A DNA stretch of 64,000 nt, taken from contig CAYJLK010000002.1 in assembly GCA_964371445.1 (NCBI GenBank), positions 43,718 to 107,717 on the forward strand, read 5' to 3'. This DNA is from an uncultured Candidatus Saccharibacteria bacterium. GTDB lineage: Bacteria > Patescibacteriota > Minisyncoccia > Phycocordibacterales > Phycocordibacteraceae. Under the pieces are notes generated by a model, which ran no database searches, was not told the DNA's origin, and saw only the letters and a program-made list of their open reading frames with translations. Shown piece by piece: positions 29,985 to 58,525 of the stretch; positions within the stretch are counted from its first letter, which is position 1; every line of letters starts with the position of its first letter. The position numbers were made by a program, and so were the translations under genes.

Positions 29985-30500
29985 TTATGCGCGCGAGGTG
30001 ATGGTGTATTTGCGCGGATCGTCGCACAGATCGGTGAATGCATGCGCCGCTTCCTTCAGTTTGCCCGAAGAAGATTTGCCGAAGGAGATGACCTCTACCT
30101 GACACCCCTCGTTCATGTCCAAGTACTGGATGAGCGGGATGAAATCGCCGTCGCCGGTGACAAGCACGACGGTATCGAGCTTCGGAGCGAGCTTGACCGC
30201 GTCAATCGCGAGCCCGACGTCCCAATCGGCCTTCTTCGCACCATCGGCGAATATCTGAAGGTCTTTCACCTTCGTCTCGATACCCATCTTGGTGAGCGCT
30301 TCGAAGAAGTTTGACTCTTCGCCGCTCTCGGTCGAGATGACGTAGGCGATGGCGCGCACGAGGATGCGGCCGCCCACGGCCTCTTCGAGAACCTTTCCGA
30401 AGTTGACGCGCGCCTTATAGAGATGTTTCGCACTGTGATAGAGATTTTGTGTGTCTATGAATACGCCGACACGCTGAGCGGGATGTTTGATAACTGCCAT
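29985..30500 (-). CDS. NYN-domain (LabA-like, PIN-like) protein
   Basis: VGVFIDTQNLYHSAK ... VLVTGDGDFIPL, a NYN ribonuclease-like fold signature. Confidence 0.8.
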   Translation of the reverse strand: MAVIKHPAQRVGVFIDTQNLYHSAKHLYKARVNFGKVLEEAVGGRILVRAIAYVISTESGEESNFFEALTKMGIETKVKDLQIFADGAKKADWDVGLAIDAVKLAPKLDTVVLVTGDGDFIPLIQYLDMNEGCQVEVISFGKSSSGKLKEAAHAFTDLCDDPRKYTITSRA

Positions 30501-30640
30501 ATAAATTTTCTTATAAAAACAAAATAATAAAACGACTCACTCACCCCATACTACCACCAAACGAGCGAGTAAAAGGAAGATTCCGATATTTCTTTTACGA
30601 ACGAGCGCAGGTGGAAAGCTTTGCTTACCACCCAAAAAAG

Positions 30641-30907
30641 CTATTTCTTGAGACCCAACTTCTTTATCAAAGCGTTGTAACGGCGCTTGTCATTCGTCTC
30701 GAGATAGCGGAGATGCATGCGACGATCGGCAACCATCTGCAAGAGACCGCGACGAGAATGAAAATCCTTCGGGTTTTTCTTCAAATGTTTTGCGAGTTCG
30801 TCGATCTGACGCGAAAGGAGCGCGACCTGTACATCCGGAGAACCGGTGTCAGTGTCGTGCCGGGCGGTGCTTTTCATCACCGCCGCCTTTTTCTTCGTGG
30901 TAAGCAT
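30641..30907 (-). CDS. rpsO: 30S ribosomal protein S15
   Basis: 88 aa, KDFHSRRGLLQMVADRRMHLRYL. Confidence 0.9.
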   Translation of the reverse strand: MLTTKKKAAVMKSTARHDTDTGSPDVQVALLSRQIDELAKHLKKNPKDFHSRRGLLQMVADRRMHLRYLETNDKRRYNALIKKLGLKK

Positions 30908-31922: not shown

Positions 31923-32065
31923 CGAAGCAGGGAGGCGTGCATGGTCGAGGACGTGTCGGAACGCGACGGCGTGAGACACAGCAAATTTTCAGCCAGAAAA
32001 TTATGCGTGTCCGAGAACAAGCATGCCTGCCGGCGGCGAAGCGACCAGTGGTATACAATACTCAA

Positions 32066-32833
32066 ATGAAACTCGTGTCGTGGAACGTAAACGGCTTGCG
32101 GTCGCTCGCCAAGGAGAGCTACTGGGAATCATTTCTCGCGGGCGTGAAGCCAGATATCTTCTGCCTCCAAGAGACCAAGGCGAATCCGGACCAGCTTTCT
32201 GAAGCGTTCCTCTCCCCTGCCGGGTATTCGGCATTCTTTTCTTCCTGTCAGATTAAGAAGGGCTATAGCGGTGTCGCTCTCTATTCTAAAGTTGAGCCGC
32301 TGAAAGTGATTTACGGCATGGGCATCCCGGAATTCGACCAGGAGGGGCGCCTCATCGGCGCAGAATATGAGGATTTCTGGCTTCTCAATGCTTATTTTCC
32401 CAACGGCGGACAAGGTCCCGAACGTCTAGACTACAAAATGCGCTTCTACGACGCCTTTCTAAAGTTCATCGAGAAACTGCGTAAGGAGAAGCCCGTCATT
32501 TTCTGCGGCGACGTGAACACCGCCCATGAAGAGATAGACTTGGCGAGACCAAAAGAAAATGAAGAGAACACCGGCTTTCTCCCCGAGGAGCGCGCCTGGA
32601 TAGACGAGGTGGTGGCTGCCGGCTACATGGACTCCTTCCGCCACTTCCACCCCAACACCAAGGAGGCGTACAGCTACTGGGATATGTTCACCCGCGCGCG
32701 CGACCGCAATGTCGGCTGGCGCATCGACTACTTCTTCGTCGCAAGCGAGTTTATGAAACACGTGAAGAAAGCCGAGATCCACCCCGACATCTTCGGCTCC
32801 GACCACTGCCCTGTTTCCATCACCATCTCATAA
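32066..32833 (+). CDS. xth: exodeoxyribonuclease III
   Basis: Trimmed to MKLVSWNVNGLRS...; ends SDHCPVSI; Xth/APE1 family. Confidence 0.9.
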   Translation: MKLVSWNVNGLRSLAKESYWESFLAGVKPDIFCLQETKANPDQLSEAFLSPAGYSAFFSSCQIKKGYSGVALYSKVEPLKVIYGMGIPEFDQEGRLIGAEYEDFWLLNAYFPNGGQGPERLDYKMRFYDAFLKFIEKLRKEKPVIFCGDVNTAHEEIDLARPKENEENTGFLPEERAWIDEVVAAGYMDSFRHFHPNTKEAYSYWDMFTRARDRNVGWRIDYFFVASEFMKHVKKAEIHPDIFGSDHCPVSITIS

Positions 32834-32866
32834 AAAACCCGCGAAGACGCGGGACCAGGTTTTTTG
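32833..32866. terminator. bidirectional rho-independent terminator
   Basis: aaaaa-cccgcg-aaga-cgcggg-accaggtttttt: a perfect 6-bp GC stem with an A-run on one side and a T-run on the other. Confidence 0.7.
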
Positions 32867-33353
32867 CTGGACAGGGATGCGGCCTCCGCCACACAATCTA
32901 TATCTCGTTCATTCGGCCCTCGCGGACTCGGGTCTCCTGAACGGCTCCAGTAAAGGACAGTTATCCACAGGGTGTCCTTTACAATGTCCTTTAGTGGACT
33001 AGTATCAACAAAGGAGAGGCGATTGTACATTCTCGTTCTTTCGTCGGCGCTCTGCCTTCCTTGCGAGGTGTCTGCCCACATTCAGGATGATTCCTGACAC
33101 AAGCCCTCCGGCATGATGTTCCTTGTTTTTAGGAAGTGCCAGTACGCAAATATCAGTTGAGATAAAAAGCTACCCACATCTCGATCGTAGGCACCATTTA
33201 ACGCCCCAAGCTCCTACCCCGCCAACGGTCACCAAACTGGGTGGCTTTTTTAATTCAACACTGTTCCACGTGTAACACCCAACCGCACACGCATCGCTTT
33301 TGAATGAAGTCAGACTTCATTCAAAGTGCTGTGGATAAGCAAGCATTTCATAC

Positions 33354-33384
33354 ATTATATATCAAATTGTTCCACGTGGAACAA
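33354..33384 (-). promoter_or_regulatory. promoter-like -35/-10 (minus strand) overlapped by a perfect 18-bp palindrome TTGTTCCACGTGGAACAA
   Basis: On the minus strand, TATAAT (+33354-33359) lies 17 nt from GTTCCA (+33377-33382). The palindrome covers the -35. A near copy GTTCCACGTGTAAC is at 33263-33276. Confidence 0.3.
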
Positions 33385-33399
33385 TACTGGCTGGAATAG

Positions 33400-34866
33400 C
33401 TAGCAGACGTGGTGCTTCGACATTATCTGGCGTACTTCCTCATCCTCTGCCTCTTCCCTCTTCTTTTTCCCTGATTCGCCAAGCTTTTTAAGCTCTTCGT
33501 CTGACAAAGCGAGCAGTTCACTAGTTCTTTTATCCAAATATTCCTCGGTATTCTTAGCAGAATCATCAAGTATTTCCTCAAGAAGTGCGTTTAGGGTCCA
33601 GCCGATACGAGGTCCCGGTTCCACATGAAACTTCTCCATTATGCGTTCTCCGCCGGTCTTCAGCATACCGACTGAGATAGGATCGCGGAGCGCCTGCTCA
33701 ACCATTGCCTTGTACTTACGGAAGCGGAAGGGCTGTTCCTTGGGTCTGCCGGTGCCGATACGGTCGCAGATACGGAGATTTAGAAGGTCCCAGATGTTCT
33801 CCTCGCCGACGTTCTTAATCATCCGACGCACGGCTGAGAGGGTAATCTGCTCGGGATCAGAAAAGAACATGTGCCACCTGACCAGTTTGACCACCTTGTC
33901 GATTGTCTCGCGAGGGAAGTGCAGGTCTTCGAGCGCCTTCTTTGTTACACGTGAACCAACGACCTCGTGGCCGTGGAAGGTCCATTCTCCTTTCTCGTTC
34001 TTTCGGCGAGTCTCCGGCTTAGACACGTCGTGGAAGAGGCCGGCGAGGCGGATATCAAAGTTCCAGTCTTTATCGGCCGCGTGCTGCATAGTGCGCATCA
34101 GGTGCTCAAAGACGTCATAGCTGTGCGCCTGGTTCTGCTCCACACCAATGCCGCGGACGAGATCCGCTGAGATATATTCGAGGATGCCAAGACGCTGTGC
34201 GAGTACGAGGGCGTTCATTGGCTGAGTCGAATTGAGTATTCTCACAAGTTCATCCTTCACTCTTTCACGTGAAACATGGCTTAAATGCTTGCTATTTTCG
34301 CTTATCGCCGCCGCAGTCGTCCCGTCGATGCCGAAATCGAGTTCTGCAACGAGACGTACGGCACGGAGCATACGGAGCGCGTCTTCATTGAGACGTTCCG
34401 ACGCGTTGCCGACGGCTCTAATGAGCTTGTCCTTTATGTCCTTTTGACCGTCGTACGGGTCAATCAAATGTCCTCGAGAGTCTTCAAGTGCGATAGCGTT
34501 GATGGTGAAGTCACGGCGCGCGAGGTCTTCAAGCAGGGAAGCACCGAACTCTACTTTATCTGGTCGGCGCTTATCAGAATATTCTGACTCGGTACGATAG
34601 GGGGTCACTTCGATGATCGCGAGACGAGGGTCCTCTGAATCAGTCTTCACGCCGACCGTTCCATAGTCATTTTCATAAAAAGAATCAGGGAATAGGCCCT
34701 GGATCTGCTCAGGGTGAGCATTTGTGGTGATGTCCCAATCCTTCGGTTCTCGGCCGATAATCAGGTCTCGGACGCAGCCACCGACGAGATACGACTCATA
34801 GCCGGCCTTTCGTAGGACGTCTTCAACTGTTGTAACTTCAGACGGAATACGATACTGCATTTCCAA
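33400..34866 (-). CDS. cca: CCA-adding tRNA nucleotidyltransferase with HD domain
   Basis: 488 aa with the Pol-beta head GGCVRDLIIGREPKDWDITT and a C-terminal HD region. Confidence 0.88.
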   Translation of the reverse strand: MEMQYRIPSEVTTVEDVLRKAGYESYLVGGCVRDLIIGREPKDWDITTNAHPEQIQGLFPDSFYENDYGTVGVKTDSEDPRLAIIEVTPYRTESEYSDKRRPDKVEFGASLLEDLARRDFTINAIALEDSRGHLIDPYDGQKDIKDKLIRAVGNASERLNEDALRMLRAVRLVAELDFGIDGTTAAAISENSKHLSHVSRERVKDELVRILNSTQPMNALVLAQRLGILEYISADLVRGIGVEQNQAHSYDVFEHLMRTMQHAADKDWNFDIRLAGLFHDVSKPETRRKNEKGEWTFHGHEVVGSRVTKKALEDLHFPRETIDKVVKLVRWHMFFSDPEQITLSAVRRMIKNVGEENIWDLLNLRICDRIGTGRPKEQPFRFRKYKAMVEQALRDPISVGMLKTGGERIMEKFHVEPGPRIGWTLNALLEEILDDSAKNTEEYLDKRTSELLALSDEELKKLGESGKKKREEAEDEEVRQIMSKHHVC

Positions 34867-34897
34867 ATCCTATCACAGTGCCGTACACTAAAGACAC

Positions 34898-34969
34898 GCC
34901 CCCGTGGTGAAATGGATATCACTGCTGACTTCGGATCAGCCGTTCCGGGTTCGAATCCTGGCGAGGGCA
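34898..34969 (+). tRNA. tRNA-Arg (anticodon TCG), CCA not encoded
   Basis: Cloverleaf: acceptor GCCCCCG/CGAGGGC (1 mismatch), anticodon loop CTTCGGA with G37, T-arm CCGGG-TTCGAAT-CCTGG. Followed by caagc. Confidence 0.75.
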
Positions 34970-35014
34970 CAAGCACTGGAAAAATAAACAGGTGACGTGT
35001 TATCATGTCGCCAG

Positions 35015-35085
35015 CGCGGGTATGGTTCAATGGTAGAACATCTGGTTGCCAATCAGATGATGGGAGTTCGATTCTCCCTACCCGC
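35015..35085 (+). tRNA. tRNA-Gly (anticodon GCC), CCA not encoded
   Basis: Acceptor GCGGGTA/TACCCGC perfect, anticodon loop TTGCCAA, T-arm GGGAG-TTCGATT-CTCCC. Confidence 0.8.
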
Positions 35086-35096
35086 ACTGAGTAAGG

Positions 35097-35137
35097 CAAA
35101 AAGAGAAAGACCGACATTGCGTCGGTCTTTCTCTTTT
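35097..35137. terminator. strong bidirectional terminator after the tRNA pair
   Basis: aaaaagagaaagaccgac-attg-cgtcggtctttctcttttt: a 15-bp stem flanked by A- and T-runs. Confidence 0.7.
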
Positions 35138-35307
35138 TCGCCGCGCGAAGTGCGGGTATGGGCATTTCCATACACGCACGACCAAAATCGTGATTTCGAA
35201 ACGACTTTGGAGTTGTGTACAAACCTGTGCACACTGGGGATAAAGGACAGCAGACTTTTTAACAAGTCCGTGAAATAGTAAGGAAATGAGCCGTATTTCT
35301 AAAAGCC

Positions 35308-43511: not shown

Positions 43512-45260
43512 ATGCACGTTTCGGAAGGCGAACTGAAAGAATTCATCACTGATTCTGGCCTTGTCGCCAAGAAAGAGATCGATGCCGCCGACAAAGAAGC
43601 AAAAGCGCGCGGACAATCGCTCGGTGCGGTCCTCGTCTCGCGCGGTTCTCTGACCGAAGACGCGCTCCGGCGCATCCAGGCATACGTGCTCGGCATTCCG
43701 TTCGTCAATCTTAAGGAACATCGCGTTCCCGTCGACGTGCTCGCGCTCATCCCAGAACCGATTGCGCGCACGCACAACATCATCGCGTTTAAGAAGGACG
43801 GCGACTCCCTTGAAGTGGCGATGCTCGACGTCGAAGACCTCGCATCGATCGACTCGGTGCGGAAGAAGACGGGGCTCAAGATCCTTTCGCGGCTGACCGA
43901 CACGGAGAGCATCAAGTATACGCTTCTGCAATACCAGAAGTCGCTGAAGGACGAGTTCGGCGATATCATCTCGACCGAAGCGGGGAAGATCCGCGTCGTA
44001 ACGGAGGGCGGGAAGGAGCTCTCGGGCGACGAACTGAAAAAGATGGCCGAGGATCTGCCGATCGTGCGCATCGTCGACACCCTGCTCCGCCACGCGATCG
44101 TCCAGGGCGCCTCCGACATCCATATCGAACCGATGGAGAGCGAAGTGCTCGTCCGCTATCGCATCGACGGCATTCTCCACGATGCGATGACACTCCCGCG
44201 GCCTGCGGCCGCGGGCATCGTCGCACGCATCAAGGTCTTGTCCAACTTAAAGCTCGATGAGAAGCGCCTCCCCCAGGACGGCCGGTTCAAGATGGAGACT
44301 GAAGCCGATCGAGTATCCTTCCGCGTCTCGATACTCCCGACCTTCTTCGGCGAAAAGACCGTTATGCGCCTTCTGCGCGAGACCGGAGAAGGCTTCACGC
44401 TTGATGTGCTCGGGCTCCACGGCGAGAATATGGAGCGCATCCACCACGCGCTCACGCAAACGACCGGTATCATCCTTGTCTCGGGGCCGACCGGAAGCGG
44501 AAAGACGACGACGCTCTATACGATGCTCGACATTTTGAATCAGCCGGACGTCAATATCTCCACTGTCGAGGATCCAATCGAATACCAGATGAAGCGCGTG
44601 AACCAGACGCAGGTGAATCCGCAGATAGGATTTACCTTCGCGAGCGGACTCCGGTCCCTCGTGCGCCAGGACCCGGACATCATCATGGTCGGCGAGATCC
44701 GCGACAGCGAGACGGCGTCGCTCGCAATCAATGCCGCACTGACCGGTCACCTGGTCCTCTCGACCATCCACACCAACAGCGCCGCGGGCGCCATTCCGCG
44801 GCTTATCGATATGGGCGTCGAACCGTTTCTGTTGGTCTCTACGCTCCGCGTCATCATCGGTCAGCGCCTCGTGCGCAAGCTCTGCGAGGGCAAGGAGCAA
44901 TACTCAATGGACAAGGCGACACGCGGGAAGATCGCGAGCGAAGAAGAGTTCAATGTTGCATTCAAAACGCTTAAGGACGAGAAGCTGGTGAAAGAAGGTT
45001 CCACGCTCGACGACATCGCGTTCTATCGGCCGAAGGAGTCCGCCGAATGCGCCGACGGATACAAGAGCCGCATCGGCATTCATGAAGTGCTCTCAGTCTC
45101 GCCGACCATCCGCGAGATTATGCTGCACTCGAGCACGAGCGGCGCTATCGAGGAGCAGGCGAAGAAAGAAGGCATGCTCACGATGTTTGAAGATGGACTC
45201 TACAAGGCCGCGCGCGGCGTTACCTCAGTCGAAGAAGTGCTCCGCGCCATCACCGAATAA
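43512..45260 (+). CDS. pilB: type IV pilus assembly ATPase PilB/GspE family
   Basis: Trimmed to MHVSEGELKEF.... GspE N-domain, Walker A VSGPTGSGKTTTLYT, and a tetracysteine-like region. Confidence 0.88.
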   Translation: MHVSEGELKEFITDSGLVAKKEIDAADKEAKARGQSLGAVLVSRGSLTEDALRRIQAYVLGIPFVNLKEHRVPVDVLALIPEPIARTHNIIAFKKDGDSLEVAMLDVEDLASIDSVRKKTGLKILSRLTDTESIKYTLLQYQKSLKDEFGDIISTEAGKIRVVTEGGKELSGDELKKMAEDLPIVRIVDTLLRHAIVQGASDIHIEPMESEVLVRYRIDGILHDAMTLPRPAAAGIVARIKVLSNLKLDEKRLPQDGRFKMETEADRVSFRVSILPTFFGEKTVMRLLRETGEGFTLDVLGLHGENMERIHHALTQTTGIILVSGPTGSGKTTTLYTMLDILNQPDVNISTVEDPIEYQMKRVNQTQVNPQIGFTFASGLRSLVRQDPDIIMVGEIRDSETASLAINAALTGHLVLSTIHTNSAAGAIPRLIDMGVEPFLLVSTLRVIIGQRLVRKLCEGKEQYSMDKATRGKIASEEEFNVAFKTLKDEKLVKEGSTLDDIAFYRPKESAECADGYKSRIGIHEVLSVSPTIREIMLHSSTSGAIEEQAKKEGMLTMFEDGLYKAARGVTSVEEVLRAITE

Positions 45261-45336
45261 CTATGCCCCGTATGACAACCTCAATCTTCAAGCGTTTTTC
45301 TAAAGAGGCAACTTATGTAAAGTTGTCATACGGGGT

Positions 45337-46551
45337 ATGAAATTTCGCGTCACTATACGCAAAGAGGGAGTGCCGGATGTCGAGAGCCTCATCGAGGCGC
45401 CGTCACGCTTCGCAGTATACGAACAAGTGCAGAATGATGGCGGGTTCGTCGTCAAACTTTCCGAAGTGGGCCGGGCATCCGCCCTATCAAAGTGGCTTTC
45501 CTACAGCATCGGCACCGGCATAAAGCGCTCCGAGATTATCCGCATGGTGCGGAACCTTTCCGCGATGCTCACCGCCGGGCTCTCGCTGTCGCGCGCGCTC
45601 TCGGTCATCGAACGGCAATCGGGCAACGCGCACCTGAAGGCGATCATCATCGAGCTCTCCGATTCGATAAAGAAAGGATCCTCATTCCATGAGGGATTGA
45701 GCGCTCATCCGAACGTGTTCCCTAAGATACTCGTCGCGATGGTGCGCGCCGGTGAAGAGTCGGGCTCTCTGTCCGATGCGCTTCTCATCGTCGGACTGCA
45801 GATGGAGCGTTCTGAAGAGCTCATACGCAAGATTAAGGGCGCGATGATCTATCCCTCGATTGTTATTTCGACGGTCATTATCGTCGGCATCCTGATGCTC
45901 ATCTATGTTGTCCCGACGCTCACCCACACCTTTAATCAGCTCGGCGTTGAAGTGCCGCTCGCAACCCGCATCATCGTCGGCCTTTCGAACTTCATGGTGG
46001 CTCATATCATCCTTGTCCTCGCGCTACTTATCGCAGGCGTCGTCGGCGGCATCGCCGCGGCGCGTTCGAGGTGGGGGAGCAATCTCATCCTTGCCGGAGC
46101 GCTGTATCTGCCGGTCATCGGGGAGCTCGTGCGAGAAACATACACCGCACGCGCGGCGCGGACGCTTTCGTCGCTCCTCTCTTCGGGCGTACCGGTCCTC
46201 GACGCCCTTTCTATTACGAAGGAGGTTGTGCGCGCAGATGCATTCGCGAACGTGGTTGGAGAAGCGGAAGAGCACGTGAAGAAAGGGGAGCTTCTCTCCG
46301 CGTCATTCGCCGAACACACGCGGCTCTATCCGATCCTGATGAGCGACATGCTCGCCGTCGGAGAAGAGACGGGCAAGGTCGCCGAGATGCTGAAACAGAT
46401 TGCAGAATTTTATGAAGCAGATGTCGCCGCGCAGACGAAGGACCTCTCGACCATCATCGAGCCGGTGCTCATGCTCGTCATCGGCGCCTTCGTCGGCATC
46501 TTCGCCGTCTCAATCATCGCGCCGATCTACTCGCTCTCCTCAGCGTTTTAA
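45337..46551 (+). CDS. pilC: type IV pilus inner-membrane platform protein PilC/GspF family
   Basis: 404 aa with two T2SSF repeats and 3 TM. Confidence 0.88.
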   Translation: MKFRVTIRKEGVPDVESLIEAPSRFAVYEQVQNDGGFVVKLSEVGRASALSKWLSYSIGTGIKRSEIIRMVRNLSAMLTAGLSLSRALSVIERQSGNAHLKAIIIELSDSIKKGSSFHEGLSAHPNVFPKILVAMVRAGEESGSLSDALLIVGLQMERSEELIRKIKGAMIYPSIVISTVIIVGILMLIYVVPTLTHTFNQLGVEVPLATRIIVGLSNFMVAHIILVLALLIAGVVGGIAAARSRWGSNLILAGALYLPVIGELVRETYTARAARTLSSLLSSGVPVLDALSITKEVVRADAFANVVGEAEEHVKKGELLSASFAEHTRLYPILMSDMLAVGEETGKVAEMLKQIAEFYEADVAAQTKDLSTIIEPVLMLVIGAFVGIFAVSIIAPIYSLSSAF

Positions 46552-48318
46552 CTAGCGCGTAATCGCGTAGGTGCCGGGAACCACTGCCCACGAACCGCCC
46601 GGTCCGTTGGAGAAGCTGGCGTTCTGCAATCCGTTCAGGTAATAAATGCTTGCATTATTTTCCAGTTTTAGGAATTTCGCGGTTATTTGGCTTGCCCGGG
46701 CGCCATTATTGACGTCTACCGTGCCGTACGGCGCATACAAAATGACGCCGGCCGCATTATTTGAAAGTTCGATGGCGTTCGGTCCGGTATTCGTACTGAT
46801 GATCATCGGGAAACTATTTGTGCTCCCGTTTCCGTTGATGATGACATTGTTTGAGAGGTCCACAATTCCTCTTGTTGCTGTATCGCCCGTCGCATCCGCA
46901 ATGATAATCGCCCCGGAGCTGCCAGTGCTCGGCGAAACGCCGAGCGTCATATTGTTTGAGAACAGGACGTTCCCGTTCACCCAGACCGGTCCGGAGAGCG
47001 TGAGCGCCGCGCCGTTCGTGACCGTCAGGTTACCGTCAATTTTCTTCGGGCCGAGCGTCACGGCACCCGCCAGCTGATAGGGACCGGCTATCGTGCCTCC
47101 CGCGGCGGCGATCTCTTCCCACTGTGCGATCTGCGCATCGCTGATAGGGAGCGGTACCGGCGCCGCGGGAAGTACGCCGGCGTGGCTTGTCCCCGCGACA
47201 CTACAGCTCGACGTCGTCTGGTAGGACGCATCGCCGCCGATTGTACAGCCTACAAGCGAGGTGGCCCACGCGCTCCCCTCGACCGTTACTCCGGAGATCG
47301 AAGTGGCCAAGCCAGTGACATACACCCTGAAGTTCAGATCGCCGGTAATGCCGCTCCACGTCGGATTCTGCGCATTCCAGTTACTGCTGTGTTTCGCGGA
47401 GCCTCTTGCGTAGCCGCTGCCGCTGTCCAATCCCCAGGTGACGTAGTTGCTCGCGCTGACCGGCACAATCGCGATAATCCAATACGTCTCTTCTGCGGTA
47501 AGAAACGGCGTGTCCTCGAGCGTGACGTCGACAAATCCGTATGTGGTTGTGACGAGCGACGAGGGGATTGTGCCGCTCGCGAGCACCGTCGTCGACGGCT
47601 TTCCGTTGTCGTCGGCAACGACCTTTATGGTGATATCGCCTGGATTTCCCGTCTTTTTCATATGCAGTGTCATTCTCGCGAGAGAAGCACTGACCGACGG
47701 CTTCATTGATTGCGAGACCGCCGCGTGCGCGGAGATATCTCCCACCGAAAAGCCACTGTCCCGCACGATCCACTCCTGATCGGCGACCGCATCGACACCC
47801 ACCGCAACGGTCGCATCGCCGGTAATCGTGCCGCTCCCTGAGATATCGCCGTTCGCGAACACATTTCCTTCAATGCGCGACCCGTTATCCATCGAAACTC
47901 CACCGATGCCGAGTTGCACCCCGTAGCGGAACGACACGAACGATGAATTTATGCTGACCATCGTCTGAATGACTTTTGTCGCGGTCGGATTCGCGCTGTT
48001 CGGCACCGTGCCGGTAACCGTGAGGCGCTTGGTGTTGCCGTCGATGCTTGAGACCGATACGCTGACCGTCCCGTTGCCGAGCGCCGTGTCGCTCTCTCCA
48101 GAATAATTTCCGTTTTGATTCAATTCGTAGACCGCCTTGTCGACCCCCGCTTCTGCGAGCGCGAGCGCTTGTGCGGATGCGAGCGCAAAACGTTCCGCAT
48201 GCACTGCGCTTCCGAAATAGCCGAAGAAACTGGTCATGACACTCATGACGATGGCGCTCGCAACGAGAGCGAGCAGGAGGATGGAACCGCGATTGTGGTG
48301 AAGGAAGCGCGTGGTCAT
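46552..48318 (-). CDS. large PilX-like minor pilin / pilus-associated protein
   Basis: 588 aa. N-terminal hydrophobic segment plus ALALAEAGVDKAVYEL, the PilX_N AEAG motif. The rest is beta-rich and Ser/Thr/Gly/Asn-rich. Confidence 0.65.
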   Translation of the reverse strand: MTTRFLHHNRGSILLLALVASAIVMSVMTSFFGYFGSAVHAERFALASAQALALAEAGVDKAVYELNQNGNYSGESDTALGNGTVSVSVSSIDGNTKRLTVTGTVPNSANPTATKVIQTMVSINSSFVSFRYGVQLGIGGVSMDNGSRIEGNVFANGDISGSGTITGDATVAVGVDAVADQEWIVRDSGFSVGDISAHAAVSQSMKPSVSASLARMTLHMKKTGNPGDITIKVVADDNGKPSTTVLASGTIPSSLVTTTYGFVDVTLEDTPFLTAEETYWIIAIVPVSASNYVTWGLDSGSGYARGSAKHSSNWNAQNPTWSGITGDLNFRVYVTGLATSISGVTVEGSAWATSLVGCTIGGDASYQTTSSCSVAGTSHAGVLPAAPVPLPISDAQIAQWEEIAAAGGTIAGPYQLAGAVTLGPKKIDGNLTVTNGAALTLSGPVWVNGNVLFSNNMTLGVSPSTGSSGAIIIADATGDTATRGIVDLSNNVIINGNGSTNSFPMIISTNTGPNAIELSNNAAGVILYAPYGTVDVNNGARASQITAKFLKLENNASIYYLNGLQNASFSNGPGGSWAVVPGTYAITR

Positions 48319-48863
48319 AGGTTTCGCAGATACAGATGCTCGCGGAGATGCGTCTGCACCGTATCTCCACGAATCAAAGCACTCGTGGTGGCATCGACGG
48401 TGACGCTCGCGACTGCAGGGAAGCTCGCACTATCGTAGGTGAAGCTGAGCGCATCGAGCGCGGATGTCAGCTGTTTCTCCCCCGAGACGCGCGCACTGCC
48501 GGCCGCCGCGTCAGTGAGCCGATAGGCATTCGTACCCGACGCAAAGATACCGATATAGTCATAGGTGTTCGCGATAGTGGCGCCCGATGCATCGATGGCG
48601 GGGAGCTCGAAGACTGCGGTCGTCGTCCCCGACGTATACGCAACGCCGGAAAAGACGTGCGACGCGACGACGTGGTCCGCCTGCAACCCCGCAGTGCGCA
48701 CCGCATCCATAATACTGCTCCCACCGAGCGTGATGCCAATCGATGATTTCTGCAATGAAATAAAATGCCCGTACACGACGGAGAGCTGTGTCACCGCCAG
48801 TATGAGAACGACGAAGAGTGCGACGGTGATGAGTGTCTCGATGAGGGTAAAGCCGCGAGTCAT
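48315..48863 (-). CDS. type IV pilin-like protein (prepilin signal)
   Basis: MTRGFTLIETLITVALFVVLILAV is a class III signal peptide with G-FTLIE. 182 aa. Confidence 0.75.
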   Translation of the reverse strand: MTRGFTLIETLITVALFVVLILAVTQLSVVYGHFISLQKSSIGITLGGSSIMDAVRTAGLQADHVVASHVFSGVAYTSGTTTAVFELPAIDASGATIANTYDYIGIFASGTNAYRLTDAAAGSARVSGEKQLTSALDALSFTYDSASFPAVASVTVDATTSALIRGDTVQTHLREHLYLRNL

Positions 48864-48866
48864 AGA

Positions 48867-49250
48867 TTAGAGGCCTCCCGACTGGGTGAGGAGTGTGGTG
48901 AACGAAACGGCGCGTGTCGACCCGTTCACGCCCTGCCACGAGACGCCGGTCATTACCTGTTTTGTCTTCGTATTCCAGACGGTGACGCTGGTGCTTGCCT
49001 GCCCCTGCGGCAGGGAAGCAAGCCCAGGGTCGAAGAACGGACCGTCTGCGGGAAGGGCGTCGTATCCTCCGGCGCGGAGCTCGTCGAGCTTGCTGTCCGC
49101 TATGCGGAACGCGATATTTTCATACGCGGCGTCGCGCACGCCGCCGACCGCGCCGACGACAAACATCGTAAAAGCGACGGTGAGGCTCATGATAAAGAGT
49201 GCGACGAGCATCTCGATCAGGGTGAATCCTGTTTTTTTGCGTACAGCCAC
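48867..49250 (-). CDS. type IV pilin (candidate major pilin), GTG start
   Basis: Within the longer ORF-track call. (V/M)AVRKKTGFTLIEMLVALFIMSLTVAFTMFVV is a textbook prepilin N-terminus. The start was trimmed to the GTG at 49250 so the gene no longer runs antisense across the tpiA promoter and start. 127 aa. Confidence 0.65.
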   Translation of the reverse strand: MAVRKKTGFTLIEMLVALFIMSLTVAFTMFVVGAVGGVRDAAYENIAFRIADSKLDELRAGGYDALPADGPFFDPGLASLPQGQASTSVTVWNTKTKQVMTGVSWQGVNGSTRAVSFTTLLTQSGGL

Positions 49251-49301
49251 TACAAAAGTATAGCAAGCTCGTCGACAAGTGAATTTGTTATACTTCCTCG
49301 T

Positions 49302-50045
49302 ATGCTTATCGTTGCAAACTGGAAAGCGTATGTCGAAGACGTTAAAAAAGCGAAGAAGCTCTTTTCGACGAGCAAGAGGCTCGCGCGCGTGACCGGCGCT
49401 ACTATCGTGCTCGCACCTCCCGCACCCTTGCTCGGCGCTCTTGCCGTCAACAATAAATCGGCGGTCGCCTTTTCCGCACAAGACATTTCTGCCACTACCG
49501 GAGGCGCCCTGACCGGAGAAGCGACCGCGGGAGCCTACGCCGCGGCAGGCGCGACCTATGTAATCGTCGGGCATTCCGAGCGCCGCGCGATGGGCGATAC
49601 CGACAGCGTCATCGTCGAGAAGCTCGCGCGCACCTTCGCGAACGGGCTTCGACCTATCCTCTGCATCGGCGAGCGCGAACGCGACAGCGAAGGCCGCTAC
49701 CTCTCCTTTCTCCGCGAAGAACTGACCGTCGCGCTTCGAGCGCTCACGCCCAAAGAGCGCGCACAAACCATCATTGCCTACGAGCCTCTGTGGGCTATAG
49801 GCAAAACGGCGGCATTCGCCATCCCGCCAAACGATCTAGCTGAAATGGTGCTCTATATCCGCAAAGTGCTTGCGGAATTCCTTCCGGGAAGAGGTTCTGC
49901 CGGTATTCCCATACTCTACGGAGGCTCAGTCGAGCCGGAGAATATCCGTGCACTTGCAGCCCTCTCGAGCGTCGATGGCTTCCTCGTCGGACATGCCTCG
50001 GTCGATCCCGCGCTCTTCGCGGCGCTCGTCCAACAGCTCGCGTAA
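49302..50045 (+). CDS. tpiA: triosephosphate isomerase
   Basis: Trimmed to MLIVANWKAYVED.... Motifs IVGHSERR and AYEPLWAIGTG-like (AYEPLWAIGKT). Confidence 0.88.
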   Translation: MLIVANWKAYVEDVKKAKKLFSTSKRLARVTGATIVLAPPAPLLGALAVNNKSAVAFSAQDISATTGGALTGEATAGAYAAAGATYVIVGHSERRAMGDTDSVIVEKLARTFANGLRPILCIGERERDSEGRYLSFLREELTVALRALTPKERAQTIIAYEPLWAIGKTAAFAIPPNDLAEMVLYIRKVLAEFLPGRGSAGIPILYGGSVEPENIRALAALSSVDGFLVGHASVDPALFAALVQQLA

Positions 50046-50047
50046 CA

Positions 50048-51223
50048 ATGCGCACCGTCCGCGACATACCGTTTCTCGAAAACATCCCCGTGCTGGTACG
50101 CGCCGCGCTGAACGTCCCCATTGAAAACGGGAAGGTCGCGAATGACTATCGCCTGCGCCGCGCAGTGCCGACGATCCAGTACCTGCGCGAGCGCGGTGCA
50201 AAAGTCGTGCTCATAAGCCACATTGAAGGAGTCGGGCTGCCTACCGGCAGATCGGGGACGGAGACGCTCCGACCGGTCGCGCACGCCCTCGACACACTGC
50301 TCCCGGGCGTCTCATTCTTCGACGAGACGATCGGAGCACCTGCGCGGCAGGCGGTGCGCGAGCTTGCGGCAGGGAAGATACTGGTGCTCGAAAATCTGCG
50401 GCGGCACAAAGGGGAGCGGATGAACGACCGCGCGTTTGCACAGGAGCTCGCGGCGCTTGCCGACGTCTTCGTCGAAGACTCGTTCGACACCTGCCACCGC
50501 GCACACGCCTCGATTGTCGGCGTCCCCGAACTCCTGCCGAGCTATGCCGGACTCCTTCTCGAAGAGGAGGTCCGCGAGCTTTCAAAAGCGCTCGCGCCCG
50601 CACACCCGTCGCTCGCAGTTATCGGCGGAATGAAATTTAATACCAAGGAAGAAGTGCTCGCGACACTTCTTGCAAAATACGACCGCGTCTTCGTCGGTGG
50701 TGCATTAGCGAGCGATTTCCTCCGAGCCTCCGGGCGGGAAGTGGGGAAGTCCTTTGTCTCGAGCGCACACACAGAATCCCTCAAAGGCCTCCTCGCCCAT
50801 CCGAAACTCGTATTGCCCATTGATTCCCTCGTCATACCGGCGAGCGCGGTCGGTACGAAAGACGCGCGAGCGAAGGCGCGCATCGCGCCTCTCGGGGACG
50901 TGCATCCCGACGAGATCATCCTCGACCACGGTCCGCGCACATCCGCCCTTCTCGCCGCTCTCGCGGAGAAAGCAGAGACCGTTCTCTGGAACGGTCCTTT
51001 GGGGAGATATGAGGACGGCTTTAGCGATGCTACTGACGACTTTGCACGCGCCGTCGCGGGCTCAGGCGCGCGCTCAGTCATCGGCGGCGGCGACACCGTT
51101 GCCGCGATAGAGGGTCTCGGTCTCCTCTCACGCTTCTCGTTCGTCTCCACCGGCGGCGGCGCGATGCTCGCCTTCCTCGCACGAGGCACCCTCCCCGGCA
51201 TCGATGCGCTCAAGGCTCACTGA
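50048..51223 (+). CDS. pgk: phosphoglycerate kinase
   Basis: 391 aa, VRAALNVP...KVVLISHIEG..., C-terminal GGGDT and STGGGAMLAFL. Confidence 0.92.
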   Translation: MRTVRDIPFLENIPVLVRAALNVPIENGKVANDYRLRRAVPTIQYLRERGAKVVLISHIEGVGLPTGRSGTETLRPVAHALDTLLPGVSFFDETIGAPARQAVRELAAGKILVLENLRRHKGERMNDRAFAQELAALADVFVEDSFDTCHRAHASIVGVPELLPSYAGLLLEEEVRELSKALAPAHPSLAVIGGMKFNTKEEVLATLLAKYDRVFVGGALASDFLRASGREVGKSFVSSAHTESLKGLLAHPKLVLPIDSLVIPASAVGTKDARAKARIAPLGDVHPDEIILDHGPRTSALLAALAEKAETVLWNGPLGRYEDGFSDATDDFARAVAGSGARSVIGGGDTVAAIEGLGLLSRFSFVSTGGGAMLAFLARGTLPGIDALKAH

Positions 51224-51579
51224 AGCGCCTGACGAATCTTCGCGGCGTTCGTTTCAAAATCGTTCTTATCGCCCTTCGCTCCATCCTCGGGGTAGACCCA
51301 GATGTGCGCGTGAGGCACCTCGTCGCCGATTATTTTTGAAAGTATCCACTCGGTGCCGAATGCTTTCTGTTGCGCCCGCGCAACTTTTCGTACCACTTCA
51401 AAATATTCGCCCACATTCGGCACGTCCCAGACCCAGCGATAGTGCGTCTTGGGAATGACTTGTGCGTGTCCCGGAGATTGCGGGTGAATATCCAGAAACG
51501 CGAGAAAAGCATCGTCTTCATAGACCGTATGCGCCGGTATCTCGCCGCTGACAATTTTGCAAAAAATACAGTTTTCCAT
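51217..51579 (-). CDS. HIT-family (histidine triad) hydrolase
   Basis: Trimmed to MENCIFCKIVSGEIP...; HAHIWV triad. Confidence 0.8.
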   Translation of the reverse strand: MENCIFCKIVSGEIPAHTVYEDDAFLAFLDIHPQSPGHAQVIPKTHYRWVWDVPNVGEYFEVVRKVARAQQKAFGTEWILSKIIGDEVPHAHIWVYPEDGAKGDKNDFETNAAKIRQALQ

Positions 51580-51598
51580 CGCTTGAGTATACAATAGT

Positions 51599-53332
51599 GT
51601 GCACATGTTCCCGCTCCACGACTCGCTTGACGACACCCTGCGCGAAGAACTCGCGCTGCACGACGACTTGACCGCTGCCTTGCTCTCGCGCCGCGGCGTG
51701 ACGACGAAAGAAGGCGCGGAACGATTTTTGAATCCGTCATACGACCTACACGTGCACGATCCGTTCCTGATGACGGATATGCAAAAAGCGGCGGAGCGAT
51801 TTGCACGCGCGATTATTTCGGGAGAAAAAATCGCGGTGTGGAGCGACTACGATTGCGACGGCATCCCGGGCGCAGTGCTCCTGCATGATTTCTTGAAAAA
51901 AGCCGGCGCGAATTTTGAGAATTACATACCTCATAGACACAACGAGGGGTACGGAATGAATATCTCTGGTATCGAAAAATTATCAAAGAGCGGTGTGCAG
52001 CTAATCGTCACGGTTGACTCCGGCATCACCGACACTGAACCGGTCGCGCGCGCGCGGGAGCTCGGCATAGAAGTCATCGTCACCGACCATCACCTTCCGG
52101 GTGAAAAATTGCCCGACGCATTCGCCATTCTGAATCCGAATGCGCGCGCCGACGAAACGTATCCGTATAAAAGTCTCTGTGGCTCCGGTGTCGCGTGGAA
52201 GCTCGTCTGTGCAACACTCGCCGTCGCCCCCAAGCTTCGCGCGAACGTGCCGGAGGGCTGGGAGAAGTGGCTCCTTGATATGGTCGGGCTCGCGACCATC
52301 GCCGACATGGTCCCGCTTACGGGTGAGAACCGCGTGCTCGCCACCTACGGCCTCCGCGTGCTCCGCAAATCGCCGCGTACTGGTTTGCAGAAAATGCTCC
52401 GCGGGATGCGCGTCGAACAACGCGCCGTTACCGAAGACGATGTCGGATTTATGATTGCACCGCGGGTCAACGCGGCGAGCCGCCTCGGCGAAGCACGCGA
52501 CGCATTCCAGCTCTTCACGACAACCGACGAGAGCGAAGCGGACCTGCTCGCGAAGAAACTCGAGAAGTTGAATCGGGAGCGCAAGGCACAGGCGGGCGCC
52601 ATCACGCGCGCGGTGCACACGCGGCTGAAAGAGCGCGGTGAGCCTCGAACCATCATCGCACTCGGCGATCCCGAGTGGCGTCCCGCACTTCTCGGACTCG
52701 TCGCGAATACCATTGCCGACGAATATGAACGGCCGGTATTCCTCTGGGGACGCGAGGGGAACATGAGTCTGAAGGGCTCATTTCGAAGCGGCGGCGGGGC
52801 CAGAATGATGGAGCTCCTAAACGCGACCGAGAACACCTTTGCACAATTCGGCGGACATGCGGCCGCAGGAGGTTTCACTCTCATCGATACGGAAGTGTTT
52901 TTCTTGGAAGATCGACTCGTCGAAGCGTATGCGCGCCTCACCGCCGACGCCGAACAGATTGATCCGCTCGTCGCTCGCGCTGACGCAGTGATCACTCCAG
53001 AAGAAGCGACGCACTCCTTCTTGCAGAAGATTGAACGCCTCGCTCCCTTCGGACAGGGTAACCAAAAACCGGTGTTCTTATTGCGCGATGTGTCTCTGCG
53101 AGAGATTTCACGCTTCGGAAAAGCAGAGGAACACCTCAAATTAAAAATCGCCGTCGATGAGAGTGACAGCAGTATCGACGCAGTCACATTCTTCGTCAAA
53201 GGTGCCATCGCGCGCACGGCGGAGAGACTGTTGCACGATAGCCGCGTGAATCTCCTCGCACACCTCGAGCGCGACACCTTCAGCCGCGGCACTCCCGTCC
53301 GCCTGCGACTTTTAGATATCAGAGTTGTATAG
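51599..53332 (+). CDS. recJ: single-stranded-DNA-specific exonuclease RecJ
   Basis: DHH (SDYDCDGI, VDSGITD, TDHH) and DHHA1 domains. Confidence 0.88.
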   Translation: MHMFPLHDSLDDTLREELALHDDLTAALLSRRGVTTKEGAERFLNPSYDLHVHDPFLMTDMQKAAERFARAIISGEKIAVWSDYDCDGIPGAVLLHDFLKKAGANFENYIPHRHNEGYGMNISGIEKLSKSGVQLIVTVDSGITDTEPVARARELGIEVIVTDHHLPGEKLPDAFAILNPNARADETYPYKSLCGSGVAWKLVCATLAVAPKLRANVPEGWEKWLLDMVGLATIADMVPLTGENRVLATYGLRVLRKSPRTGLQKMLRGMRVEQRAVTEDDVGFMIAPRVNAASRLGEARDAFQLFTTTDESEADLLAKKLEKLNRERKAQAGAITRAVHTRLKERGEPRTIIALGDPEWRPALLGLVANTIADEYERPVFLWGREGNMSLKGSFRSGGGARMMELLNATENTFAQFGGHAAAGGFTLIDTEVFFLEDRLVEAYARLTADAEQIDPLVARADAVITPEEATHSFLQKIERLAPFGQGNQKPVFLLRDVSLREISRFGKAEEHLKLKIAVDESDSSIDAVTFFVKGAIARTAERLLHDSRVNLLAHLERDTFSRGTPVRLRLLDIRVV

Positions 53333-53339
53333 TACCCAC

Positions 53340-53759
53340 ATGAAATTCACCATCCATGCCGACGGGGGAGCACGGGGGAACCCGGGACCAAGCGGTGCAG
53401 GCGCGGTCGTGCGCGACGAGTTCGGCAGTATCGTCGCGAGCGTTTCAAAATTTCTCGGTCACCGCACAAATAATTTCGCCGAGTACGAGGCGGTCATCCT
53501 CGCCTTTGAGGAACTCCTGAAGCTCGTGCCGAGCGCCGAGCGCGAGCTCACCGATGTGACGGTAAAAATGGACAGCGAGCTGGTAGTGAAGCAGATGAAA
53601 AAAGAATACAAAGTGCGGCATCCGGTCCTCAAAGAACAGCAGGCGCGCCTCGCGCAGGTCGCCGGCGCCTTCGGCACGGTGACCTTCATGCACGTCTTCC
53701 GCGAAGAAAATTCCGACGCCGACGCCCTCGCCAACGAAGCGATGGACCGTGGTGCATAA
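53340..53759 (+). CDS. rnhA: ribonuclease HI
   Basis: MKFTIHADGGARGNPGPSGAG...NNFAEYEA...; ATG at 53340 just after the recJ stop. Confidence 0.85.
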   Translation: MKFTIHADGGARGNPGPSGAGAVVRDEFGSIVASVSKFLGHRTNNFAEYEAVILAFEELLKLVPSAERELTDVTVKMDSELVVKQMKKEYKVRHPVLKEQQARLAQVAGAFGTVTFMHVFREENSDADALANEAMDRGA

Positions 53760-54231
53760 TCTTAAGAACATGATTTCTACTTCAACAATGCAAGTTTTGG
53801 TTCCATCACTTTCAGCTCTTGTTGGGGCAGTAATAGGTGCGACTGCGGCTCTTGCGGGTGTACGTTGGCAAATTATTGCCGATCATAAACAAAAACGAGA
53901 TGAACAAATTTTTAACGCTCGTCGTGATGTTTATGCAGAAATAATGAGCATTCTGAATTATTCATTTTTAAAAGGGAAAGATTTAAATGCTGCACTTTCG
54001 GATCCGCATTTTAAAACGCAGGTGTCGATACATATGGGGGACTGTTTCAGCCGGGCGAGACCAATTGCAGGTTTAAGGCTCAGTGAAAAACTCCGTGAAC
54101 TTTATGGGGCGGAGATGCTTTTGTGGAAGCCTGAAAATACCGGTGAAAACACCGAGTTGGATAAAAAACGTGCTGCGCTGGCGAACGAAGTTGAGATCCT
54201 TATTCGTGAAGACCTTGGTATAACGGATTAA
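53749..54231 (+). CDS. hypothetical N-terminally anchored protein in an AT-rich segment
   Basis: 160 aa with a TM (VLVPSLSALVGAVIGATAALAGV). No family. Local GC is markedly lower than the genome. Confidence 0.5.
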   Translation: MVHNLKNMISTSTMQVLVPSLSALVGAVIGATAALAGVRWQIIADHKQKRDEQIFNARRDVYAEIMSILNYSFLKGKDLNAALSDPHFKTQVSIHMGDCFSRARPIAGLRLSEKLRELYGAEMLLWKPENTGENTELDKKRAALANEVEILIREDLGITD

Positions 54232-54256
54232 AATCGTATAGATATTTTCTGCCACG

Positions 54257-55777: not shown

Positions 55778-56298
55778 TTCTTCTTCTCTGCCGGCACATA
55801 GTCCACCATATACGCGTGCTCCCAGAGGTCGAGCGCGAGCAGGATAGGGAGGCCGGCGAGTGATCCGAGTTCATGGTCGTTCACAAAGACCGTGTGTAAT
55901 GTCTTCCCGATAGGGTCGGCATAGACGACGACCCAGCCGATGCCGCGGCTCTGTGCGACTTCTCGCATGTGCGCCTCGAGTGTTTTCTCTCCGTACTTCT
56001 CGGTTATTGCCTTCGCGAGCGCCCCATCGCCCGTGAGGGAAGTCTGACTTCCTTCAAACTGTTCAAAGTAATATTCGTGGAGGCGCATCCCGTTGAATTC
56101 AAAGGCGAGCCGTCTACGCATCTCGGCTATCGCATATTTCCCACCCTCATCTTCTGTCTGTCCATACGCGGCGATGGTCGCCATGATGAGATTCACATGC
56201 TTCACGTACCCCTCATAGAGGGCGAGGTGCACTTTCACCTGCTTTTCTGAAATCCCCGAGAGAATAGGGAGGTCGAACTGTTTTGCGGTGTAGGTCAT
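55708..56298 (-). CDS. sodA: Fe/Mn superoxide dismutase
   Basis: Trimmed to MTYTAKQFDLP.... Motifs HLALYEGYV, FNGMRLHEYYF, DLWEHAY. Confidence 0.88.
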   Translation of the reverse strand: MTYTAKQFDLPILSGISEKQVKVHLALYEGYVKHVNLIMATIAAYGQTEDEGGKYAIAEMRRRLAFEFNGMRLHEYYFEQFEGSQTSLTGDGALAKAITEKYGEKTLEAHMREVAQSRGIGWVVVYADPIGKTLHTVFVNDHELGSLAGLPILLALDLWEHAYMVDYVPAEKKNYVDAFFANVNWSVVEKRFDATI

Positions 56299-56419
56299 AG
56301 ACCTAAAATGTACCATTCATTTACAAGAACTCCATGTAGACAGCGGATAGAAACTCGTGAAGTCTTTGAACACAAAGACGGGCCCTTCATGAGGGGTCCG
56401 TCTTCAGGAGCGCGCCGTT

Positions 56420-58524: not shown

Positions 58525-58525
58525 T

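Follow-up and report, generated by a model that had tools for sequence, protein, structure and literature searches.

What do the convergent genes xth and cca enclose between their 3' ends in the genome of an uncultured Candidatus Saccharibacteria bacterium? The gap in question lies in a 64,000-nt stretch of contig CAYJLK010000002.1 (assembly GCA_964371445.1), referred to here as the window and numbered from its first letter. A preliminary description of its sequence had placed the gap between these two genes and proposed that it holds a regulated small RNA or a protein-binding control region. The domains of the two gene products confirm the identity of these flanking genes (Table 1), and comparison with relatives makes it very likely that the gap contains not one regulatory hub but two adjacent and independent functional units, namely the gene for a structured RNA and two sites of a parS cluster that continues into cca. 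Both halves of the original proposal are thereby upheld, although for parts of the gap other than those to which it had assigned them.

The relatives used throughout are 80 loci retrieved in a search with the cca protein (73-92% identity), and nearly all of them are labelled Candidatus Kaiserbacteria, Paceibacterota or Parcubacteria. The window is therefore taken to stem from a Kaiserbacteria-like member of the Candidate Phyla Radiation (CPR). Conservation was mapped by BLASTN of the reverse-complemented intergenic region against these loci. It peaks sharply in a core at 32951-33015 and extends in closer relatives to about 33280. The stretch at 32834-32950, including the spacer 32866-32945, is not conserved in the relatives, where the xth stop codon usually abuts TAAAGGACA, the first element of the core.

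The first unit, the RNA gene, is seen in its base pairs. RNAalifold, applied to a MAFFT alignment of 33 sequences, returned three helices with compensatory changes, the variable regions being misaligned; averaged pair probabilities and inspection added the helices P2, P3 and P4, and these, together with helices defined manually, seeded a covariance model of 40 base pairs, R1. The sole match of R1 in the window is at 33006-33251 on the plus strand (133.6 bits, E-value 1e-36). Among the relatives, R1 finds one copy each in 77 of the 80 loci (78 of 81 sources with the window), always between xth and cca, just downstream of cca and on the opposite strand. Of the three unmatched loci, two end too near cca, and the third, L080, has a divergent copy that can be seen by eye. 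In the alignment of 78 sequences, standard pairs occupy 89.1% of the cells, as against 37-48% after sliding the 3' partners along by 1-3 columns, and 39 of the 40 modelled pairs show changes on both sides. Doubly changed cells number 454 compared with 123 in shuffles, the covariation score is 0.447 compared with 0.07-0.13 when slid, and none of 500 shuffles reaches any observed measure. The base pairs of this RNA are maintained by compensatory substitutions across its homologues, and the comparative alignment that had been suggested as a check of the region has borne it out, with conservation across relatives and covariation. An optional outer extension of P2, termed P1b, likewise covaries where it is present (GCAU/AUGC, GCGU/ACGC, GUGU/ACAC), and the RNA of the window folds better than its shuffles (z = -2.9). 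A blind search for further covarying column pairs was too noisy to use.

Five covarying helices are shown (P2, P3, P3a, B and C). With them the RNA folds into a central domain built around a three-way junction, of which P4, whose own pairing has weak support, is one arm, and a separate 3' hairpin domain, the two being joined by an A-rich linker. The 28-nt, C-rich loop of hairpin B, in the 3' domain, is among the most conserved stretches of the RNA. Other blocks are common to the relatives' RNAs (GUUCUUUC..GAUCUUUC, CCUGCC.ACG, CGCGG-CGAU-CCGCG, ACAAGCC, ACGCCCCUGCUCCUUUU and GGGYGGCUUUU), and the segments between them vary in a compensatory fashion. In about a third of the relatives a variable hairpin, in many cases with a UUCG cap, is inserted close to the 5' end, and the RNA, trimmed by the terminator pattern, measures between 215 and 330 nt, its indels not keeping to multiples of three. 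The RNA is predicted to end at the long-range helix C, followed by a U-tract. Because an A-run precedes helix C, the opposite strand gains a stem plus U-run as well, and the 3' domain may double as a terminator for cca, whose transcript converges on it. The terminator scan found a plus-strand stem followed by T6 at 33227-33252, about 230 nt downstream of the promoter; this is the stem with a T-run that the preliminary description had listed, and it belongs to the terminator of the RNA gene. Two competing local structures were rejected. A GCC-NNNN-GGC hairpin inside P3 is ruled out by the fact that P3 covaries and the alternative does not, and a short CCACC/GGGUGG terminator hairpin by the U-run is impossible in several relatives, whereas the long-range helix can always form.

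The RNA would be transcribed from a conserved sigma-70-type promoter directly upstream of it, at a -35/-10 pair that was also reported by a promoter scan. The -35 hexamer reads TTTACA in 54 of 64 relatives, and the -10 element has the form TAnnnT, at fixed spacing and with freely varying inner positions, in 63 of the 64, a pattern that we therefore read as a sigma-70 -35/-10 signature on the plus strand. The conserved core has the layout TAAAGGACA, a variable spacer, TTATCCACAG, NNN, TGTCCTTTACA, N, TGTCCTTTA, N6 and TAnnnT. TAAAGGACA and its two downstream complements, which had already been noticed as such, are thus the upstream elements of the RNA promoter: two copies of the 9-mer TGTCCTTTA, in direct orientation, cover the -35 hexamer and spacer, and the third, which is inverted, makes up the left arm of an inverted repeat. 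With at most one mismatch, this left arm is present in 59 of 64 relatives, where its distance to the right arm varies between 12 and 56 nt. Between the two arms lies a match to the DnaA-box consensus, TTATCCACA, which is one of only two perfect DnaA boxes in the window. At this position the box is perfect in 42 of 63 relatives and has one mismatch in another 20, always 3-5 nt before TGTCC, and the position holds 46 of the 63 perfect DnaA boxes in 814 kb of loci, where about six would be expected by chance in all. The direct repeats are a candidate site for a DNA-binding protein, and the arrangement as a whole suggests that transcription of the RNA is regulated by DnaA and by a putative protein that binds the 9-mer. 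Control of RNA synthesis would then be exerted through the DnaA box and the three TGTCCTTTA repeats, which overlie and precede the -35 hexamer.

Two kinds of known promoter invite comparison. DnaA-regulated promoters and box clusters, such as datA and the clusters of B. subtilis, resemble this one in the fixed placement of TTATCCACA upstream of the -35 hexamer and in the presence, 2.2 kb away, of a second element with three tandem box-like 9-mers; they differ in that the boxes here are few and coupled to an unrelated 9-mer, TGTCCTTTA. Pho-box-type promoters carry response-regulator direct repeats that overlap the -35 hexamer with a period of 11. The present promoter likewise has two direct repeats, starting with TGTC, over the -35 and the spacer, but with a period of 12, a different sequence and a third, inverted copy at a variable distance, and we regard this likeness as a lead only.

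The 9-mer itself is strongly over-represented, with 346 occurrences of TGTCCTTTA in 853 kb of relatives' sequence where 6.5 would be expected (about 50-fold over). In the relatives it is concentrated at three locations, the RNA promoter, the interior of cca and a conserved element of about 37 nt beyond cca (see below), and the five perfect copies of the window all fall within 32951-35249. Inside cca, a tandem TGTCCTTTA-TGTCCTTTT at 34428-34445 (plus strand, antisense to the gene, over cca codons 140-146, GQKDIKDK) coincides with the most synonymously constrained spot of the gene (0.94 vs 0.58 gene-wide), and most relatives have another TGTCCTTTA copy 41 nt from it. This suggests that 34428-34445 is a protein-binding site at the DNA level that shares its motif with the RNA promoter.

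The second unit of the gap begins behind the RNA terminator. Chromosomal parS sites follow the consensus TGTTNCACGTGAAACA, also written tGTTNCACGTGAAACa (PMC7022226), and the palindrome TGTTCCACGTGGAACA near the cca stop codon is identical to a documented Pseudomonas parS. This palindrome had been described as perfect over 18 bp and in fact extends to 20 bp, at 33366-33385; its near copy about 100 bp away is also present, and both match the consensus at 15 of 16 positions. With up to three mismatches allowed, the parS pattern has five distinct sites in the window. All of them fall between 33262 and 34276, the other 63 kb being free of them; 0.78 matches would be expected, and none of 100 shuffles is as high. 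The search for further palindrome sites that had been recommended does therefore find extra copies, but clustered inside the adjacent cca gene and not as a dispersed regulon. The relatives repeat the arrangement: of their 246 parS-like sites with at most two mismatches (853 kb, 80 relatives), 244 are located in cca or in the 400 nt that follow it downstream, those in the gene at fixed distances of -876, -555, -516 and -229 nt from the end of the gene, and the same cca codon positions bear such sites in 77 of 80 relatives. A parS-like site is found within 450 nt downstream of cca in 63 of 76 relatives, mostly in the first 100 nt. Across 70 aligned cca genes, the commonest synonymous codon has a share of 0.82-0.87 at the three in-gene sites vs 0.58 gene-wide, so that it is selection on the DNA and not on the protein that keeps these sites.

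Taken jointly with the RNA gene, it is very likely that the five sites represent an ordinary parS cluster, the centromere at which ParB is loaded onto this chromosome. ParB, as extrapolated from the ParABS literature, would bind at 33262, at 33368 and at the three sites internal to cca. The cluster resembles the chromosomal parS sites of Bacillus subtilis (the Spo0J sites) and Pseudomonas in its 16-bp palindrome, matched at 15 of 16 positions, and in having its copies within 1 kb; parS copies are commonly found inside coding genes. It differs from them in its location in and behind cca, not near parAB or oriC genes, and in that many relatives have an extra parS-like copy as the P4 arm of the neighbouring RNA. 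As side observations, in most relatives, L008, L009, L010 and L047 among them, the P4 arm reads GTTCCACGTGAAAG, parS-like with two mismatches, while the window has an unrelated, hairpin-capable replacement, and in the 80 loci about 22 parS-like sites are located 100-400 nt downstream of cca, an interval into which the RNA gene falls.

Several points weigh against the reading of the gap as an RNA gene beside a parS cluster. The relatives were all gathered via cca, and the distribution given here is accordingly that within the xth-cca synteny of Kaiserbacteria. The alignment used for the pair counts was fitted to R1, which biases these counts towards structure; given the slid and shuffled controls, however, the fitting is unlikely to explain the pairing. 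The 5' end and the strand of the RNA are both predictions. Only 57% of the cells of the P4 arm pair, and in many relatives P4 looks as if it were kept as a parS-like DNA motif and not as an RNA helix; most relatives have the parS-like GUUCCACGUGAAAG where the window has GUUCCUUGUUUUUAGGAAG. Two pairings of the 5' AAAGGA-GGG tract, one with the conserved loop of hairpin B as a pseudoknot and one with the UCUUUC repeat as a local hairpin, find no support in duplex energies or in covariation. Duplexes of tract and loop have energies of -8.7 kcal/mol with their own partners, -8.3 with those of other sequences and -7.8 when shuffled, covariation is absent for either model of 5' pairing, and the idea that the loop pairs thus lacks statistical support. 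On the side of parS, the ParB box-II motif was not found in six-frame translations of the window or of the 80 loci, and the genes for ParB, ParA and DnaA do not occur in the window or the loci.

The alternative that survives best is that the region is a replication origin, part of one, or a DnaA-titrating box cluster, its sequence being conserved as DNA and its DnaA boxes, low GC content, palindromes and parS sites all belonging to the equipment of an origin. Both perfect DnaA boxes of the window are here, the first of them (32961-32969) conserved in the relatives, and no other 400 bp of the 64 kb is as rich in boxes as 32951-33350. The second conserved element, with its three tandem box-like 9-mers, lies 2.2 kb away, past tRNA-Gly. 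Its pattern, which ends in TT(T/G)ATCCAC, occurs in 45 sequences counting the window and relatives (for example at about 5627-5665 in L006), just past tRNA-Gly(GCC) where the tRNAs were mapped and 300-2500 nt upstream of cca. Clusters of parS are usually origin-proximal (PMC7022226), and gene strands diverge near 31-37 kb as they would around an origin: the minus strand carries those left of about 31 kb (2400-30900, including ribosomal proteins, EF-Tu, EF-G and rpsO), the plus strand most of those beyond about 45 kb (45000-64000), as judged from greedy open reading frame (ORF) calls read against a few recognisable products. Joined with the parS sites, these features would fit a position near the origin, or even an origin itself. 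The stretch 32951-35249 (2.3 kb) would in that case be an origin and centromere module of Kaiserbacteria chromosomes, comprising in order the DnaA box with its TGTCCTTTA repeats, the RNA gene, the parS sites in and behind cca, two tRNA genes and the second DnaA-box/TGTCCTTTA element. If so, an RNA with a DnaA box in its promoter would take part in, or report on, initiation or segregation, and the protein recognising TGTCCTTTA would be a further origin or centromere factor specific to the CPR. We nevertheless consider this unlikely. What the conserved 240 nt display is compensatory change of the RNA type and not conserved boxes; there are just two perfect boxes and a few weak ones, and the second perfect box is not conserved. 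No conserved AT-rich unwinding element was seen, the AT-rich 33340-33367 being absent from the relatives' sequences, GC skew does not switch in the window, and dnaA and dnaN are not within the 64 kb. The combination of several DnaA boxes, an AT-rich unwinding element and a GC-skew switch by which an oriC is recognised was looked for here and not found.

Another possibility is that there is no stand-alone RNA at all and that the structure is a cis-acting 3' module, acting as a bidirectional terminator or in antisense control of the cca 3' end. Helix C, flanked by an A-run and a U-run, does offer a stem plus U-tract on both strands, with the A-rich run before it kept in relatives, and the RNA is always directly downstream of cca. 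The preference for the plus strand is, moreover, only moderate when all 40 pairs are counted (89.0% paired vs 87.1% on the opposite strand). A terminator, however, needs neither 150 nt of additional covarying helices (P2, P3 and P3a) nor a promoter kept in 63 of 64 relatives. In the helices P2, P3, B and C, G.U pairs outnumber A.C by 165 to 49 on the plus strand, about 3:1, and this strand is therefore favoured; the orientation of the promoter, the U-tract and the UUCG loops agree with it, the capped insertions reading UUCG on the plus strand only. A cis-acting module in place of an RNA gene is thus improbable.

A stand-alone RNA could also belong to a known housekeeping family, for instance 6S RNA, and have diverged so far in CPR bacteria that the Rfam models miss it. 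Like 6S RNA, it is single-copy and clade-wide, has a strongly conserved promoter and measures a few hundred nt, and in the full-text literature on the CPR, Parcubacteria and Kaiserbacteria our searches turned up no such RNA (nor any report of parS). Its covarying helices, however, make a three-way junction and a 3' hairpin domain, and do not form the closing stem, central bubble and terminal stem of the 6S rod. A scan of the window at the gathering thresholds of Rfam 15 reports only four tRNAs. A permissive scan of 32700-33550 yields four matches with E-values of 1.8-8.6, well below gathering scores, of which two are in cca, two are on the xth terminator and none is inside the RNA gene, and the same permissive scan of the best-scoring relative, L034, yields none, so that in two representatives nothing scores within the RNA at E-values up to 10. 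ARAGORN finds the four tRNAs of the window and no transfer-messenger RNA (tmRNA), and the signature sequences of RNase P, signal recognition particle RNA and tmRNA were not seen by eye in the RNA, in agreement with the preliminary description. A missed housekeeping RNA is hence even less probable than a cis-acting module, and because neither an Rfam match nor a published description of it was found and it does not fold like 6S RNA, we treat the putative RNA at 33006-33251 as a previously undescribed, clade-wide structured RNA family. The lack of a structured RNA in the Rfam scan had been named in advance as counting against the region; it does not do so overall, since the region is conserved with covariation and its palindrome has partner sites.

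The palindromes themselves (GTTCCACGTGGAAC) had been interpreted differently, as the operator of a minus-strand promoter, GTTCCA-17-TATAAT, with which a transcription factor would command a dispersed regulon. The palindromic pair about 100 bp apart and the promoter-like pair do exist. GTTCCA nevertheless matches TTGACA at only three of six positions, the promoter scan is silent here and TATAAT is missing from the relatives' sequences. Their sequence is moreover that of the parS consensus, and the other copies are not at promoters but inside cca, at conserved and synonymously constrained codons. We accordingly replace the operator, which has very little probability left, by parS sites. That the region instead encodes a small protein, either from a TTG at 33023 (24 amino acids, with the Shine-Dalgarno-like AAAGGAGAGG, AAAGGAG, 3 nt upstream) or as a 117-amino-acid minus-strand ORF, is scarcely credible, given that the start codon is not conserved, that the ORFs of relatives' RNAs have 4-67 amino acids or are absent, with frame-breaking indels and none conserved, and that none of the ORFs has a significant Pfam match. 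The longer ORF (32728-33081) does overlap the gap, contrary to the earlier statement that it has no ORF of 60 or more amino acids, but is very probably spurious, as it lacks a significant Pfam match, runs antisense to xth and crosses the spacer that relatives lack.

How might the RNA act? We can only tentatively propose that it works in trans, as a regulatory or ribonucleoprotein RNA, with the conserved loop of hairpin B as its interaction surface. This loop (...ACGCCCC-N-GCUCCUUUU) resembles an anti-Shine-Dalgarno sequence. Its partners could be purine-rich ribosome-binding sites or the AAAGGAG tract at the 5' end of the same RNA. Base pairing through the loop would be the likeliest mode of action, a protein-binding or ribonucleoprotein role being about as plausible. 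RsaE/RoxS of the Firmicutes are stand-alone small RNAs with C-rich, anti-Shine-Dalgarno-like loops. The RNA described here shares with them a predicted promoter of its own, an intrinsic terminator and a conserved, probably unpaired loop that is C-rich or CUCCUUU-like and could pair with ribosome-binding sites; it is much larger (about 240 nt), contains a three-way-junction domain and has no sequence or Rfam relation to them, and the likeness concerns a possible mode of action and not membership of a family.

The remaining elements of the locus are listed with the principal ones in Table 1. The gap has a lower GC content (0.43-0.51) than its flanks (0.54-0.60), as had been noted, and the GC minimum of the neighbourhood (0.385-0.395) is at 30400-30700, between a gene for an NYN-domain protein and rpsO. 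A tyrosine recombinase gene lies upstream of xth. Where a terminator had been placed at the left end of the gap there is a terminator-like, G+C-rich hairpin flanked on either side by A/T runs. Read on the minus strand it has the canonical form; for the plus strand, that of xth, the T-run stands 6 nt off the stem. The strong hairpin that had been reported also exists, at 33299-33325, with perfect 13-nt arms. Several relatives have a hairpin in the same place with a different stem and, by eye, a similar centre (GGTC-N-GACC or GGT-NNN-ACC), and it does not have the make-up of a canonical intrinsic terminator, its stem being A/U-rich with U before and A after it on both strands and the terminator scan being silent. 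The second perfect DnaA box is not conserved: in the interval from the RNA terminator to cca, only one of 74 relatives has a box. Synonymous-codon conservation in cca has another peak (0.81-0.86) at the gene's 3' end, over 33421-33450 (codons 473-482, EDEEVRQIMS); 17 nt overlapping it, 33430-33446, are 76% complementary, on the same strand, to 33131-33147 in the RNA gene. Directly after tRNA-Gly(GCC) stands a long perfect hairpin, AAAAAGAGAAAGACCGAC-ATTGC-GTCGGTCTTTCTCTTTTT with A and T runs (35092-35135), which is probably a bidirectional terminator. In L001, the closest relative (cca identity 92%), the locus is locally rearranged, with a 28-nt match to the 3' end of xth about 2.5 kb from the RNA promoter and not next to it, and its tRNA-Arg and tRNA-Gly(GCC) are inverted compared with those of the other scanned loci.

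Table 1. Features of the xth-cca locus, in window coordinates (a dot in the strand column: no strand assigned)
Feature	Position	Strand	Remarks
xth	31937-32833	+	ORF; Exo_endo_phos (exonuclease III-type) protein
Terminator-like hairpin CCCGCG-AAGA-CGCGGG	32832-32865 (stem 32838-32853)	.	A-run before, T-run after
Inverted TGTCCTTTA copy	32951-32959	-	reads TAAAGGACA on +; left arm of inverted repeat upstream of RNA promoter
DnaA-box consensus TTATCCACA	32961-32969	+	8 nt upstream of -35 hexamer
Two direct TGTCCTTTA repeats	32973-32981, 32985-32993	+	period 12; overlie -35 hexamer and spacer
Sigma-70-type promoter (predicted)	32978-33005	+	-35 TTTACA 32978-32983, 16-nt spacer, -10 TAGTAT 33000-33005
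Structured non-coding RNA gene (putative)	33006-33251	+	about 240 nt; predicted start about 33010-33013
RNA 5' purine tract AAAGGAGAGG	33010-33019	+	
RNA pyrimidine repeats GUACAUUC and GUUCUUUC	33024-33031 and 33035-33042	+	
Helix P2	33054-33060 with 33132-33139	+	closes central domain
Helix P3	33071-33076 with 33110-33116	+	within P2-closed domain
P3a hairpin	33083-33087 with 33092-33096	+	within P2-closed domain
Terminator-like stem and U-run	33161-33193	-	scan site 33193->33171, tail GCTTTTTATC; complement of A-rich linker and helix C
Long-range helix C	33165-33176 with 33238-33249	+	12 bp; U6 at 33246-33251
Hairpin B	33183-33192 with 33221-33230	+	enclosed by helix C
Hairpin B loop ACCAUUUAACGCCCCAAGCUCCUACCCC	33193-33220	+	28 nt, C-rich
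parS site TGTTCCACGTGTAACA (near copy)	33262-33277	.	15/16 to TGTTNCACGTGAAACA
Hairpin TTTGAATGAAGTC-A-GACTTCATTCAAA	33299-33325	.	perfect 13-bp arms 33299-33311 and 33313-33325, 1-nt loop
Second perfect DnaA box	33330-33338	-	TGTGGATAA on +
parS site TGTTCCACGTGGAACA	33368-33383	.	15/16; perfect palindrome, 16 nt from cca stop codon
cca	33400-34866	-	ORF; CCA-adding enzyme; PolyA_pol head, HD and tRNA_NucTran2_2 domains
parS-like sites inside cca	33617-33632, 33943-33958, 34261-34276	.	3, 1 and 1 mismatches
Conserved element of about 37 nt, TGTCCTTTATCCCCA-GTGTGCACA-GG-TTTATCCAC	35249->35213	-	TGTCCTTTA copy, then three tandem DnaA-box-like 9-mers

The CPR, or Patescibacteria, are a large and almost wholly uncultured group, and little is known of their non-coding RNAs or of the biology of their chromosomes. 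The kind of finding reported here is unsurprising, small RNA genes and parS sites being well known; what is unusual is how elaborate and conserved the promoter of the RNA is. The over-representation of TGTCCTTTA at recurrent locations points to a sequence-specific DNA-binding protein. The parS cluster, with its synonymous constraint, marks the putative ParB-loading region and may serve to anchor the origin-proximal domain in fragmentary metagenome-assembled genomes. The RNA occurs once in every Kaiserbacteria genome sampled with enough flanking sequence, behind a promoter that is more conserved than the spacing of the neighbouring genes. Such a single-copy, clade-wide RNA probably has a core function in these bacteria, and it is something concrete to look for in metatranscriptomes and from which to build a new Rfam family.

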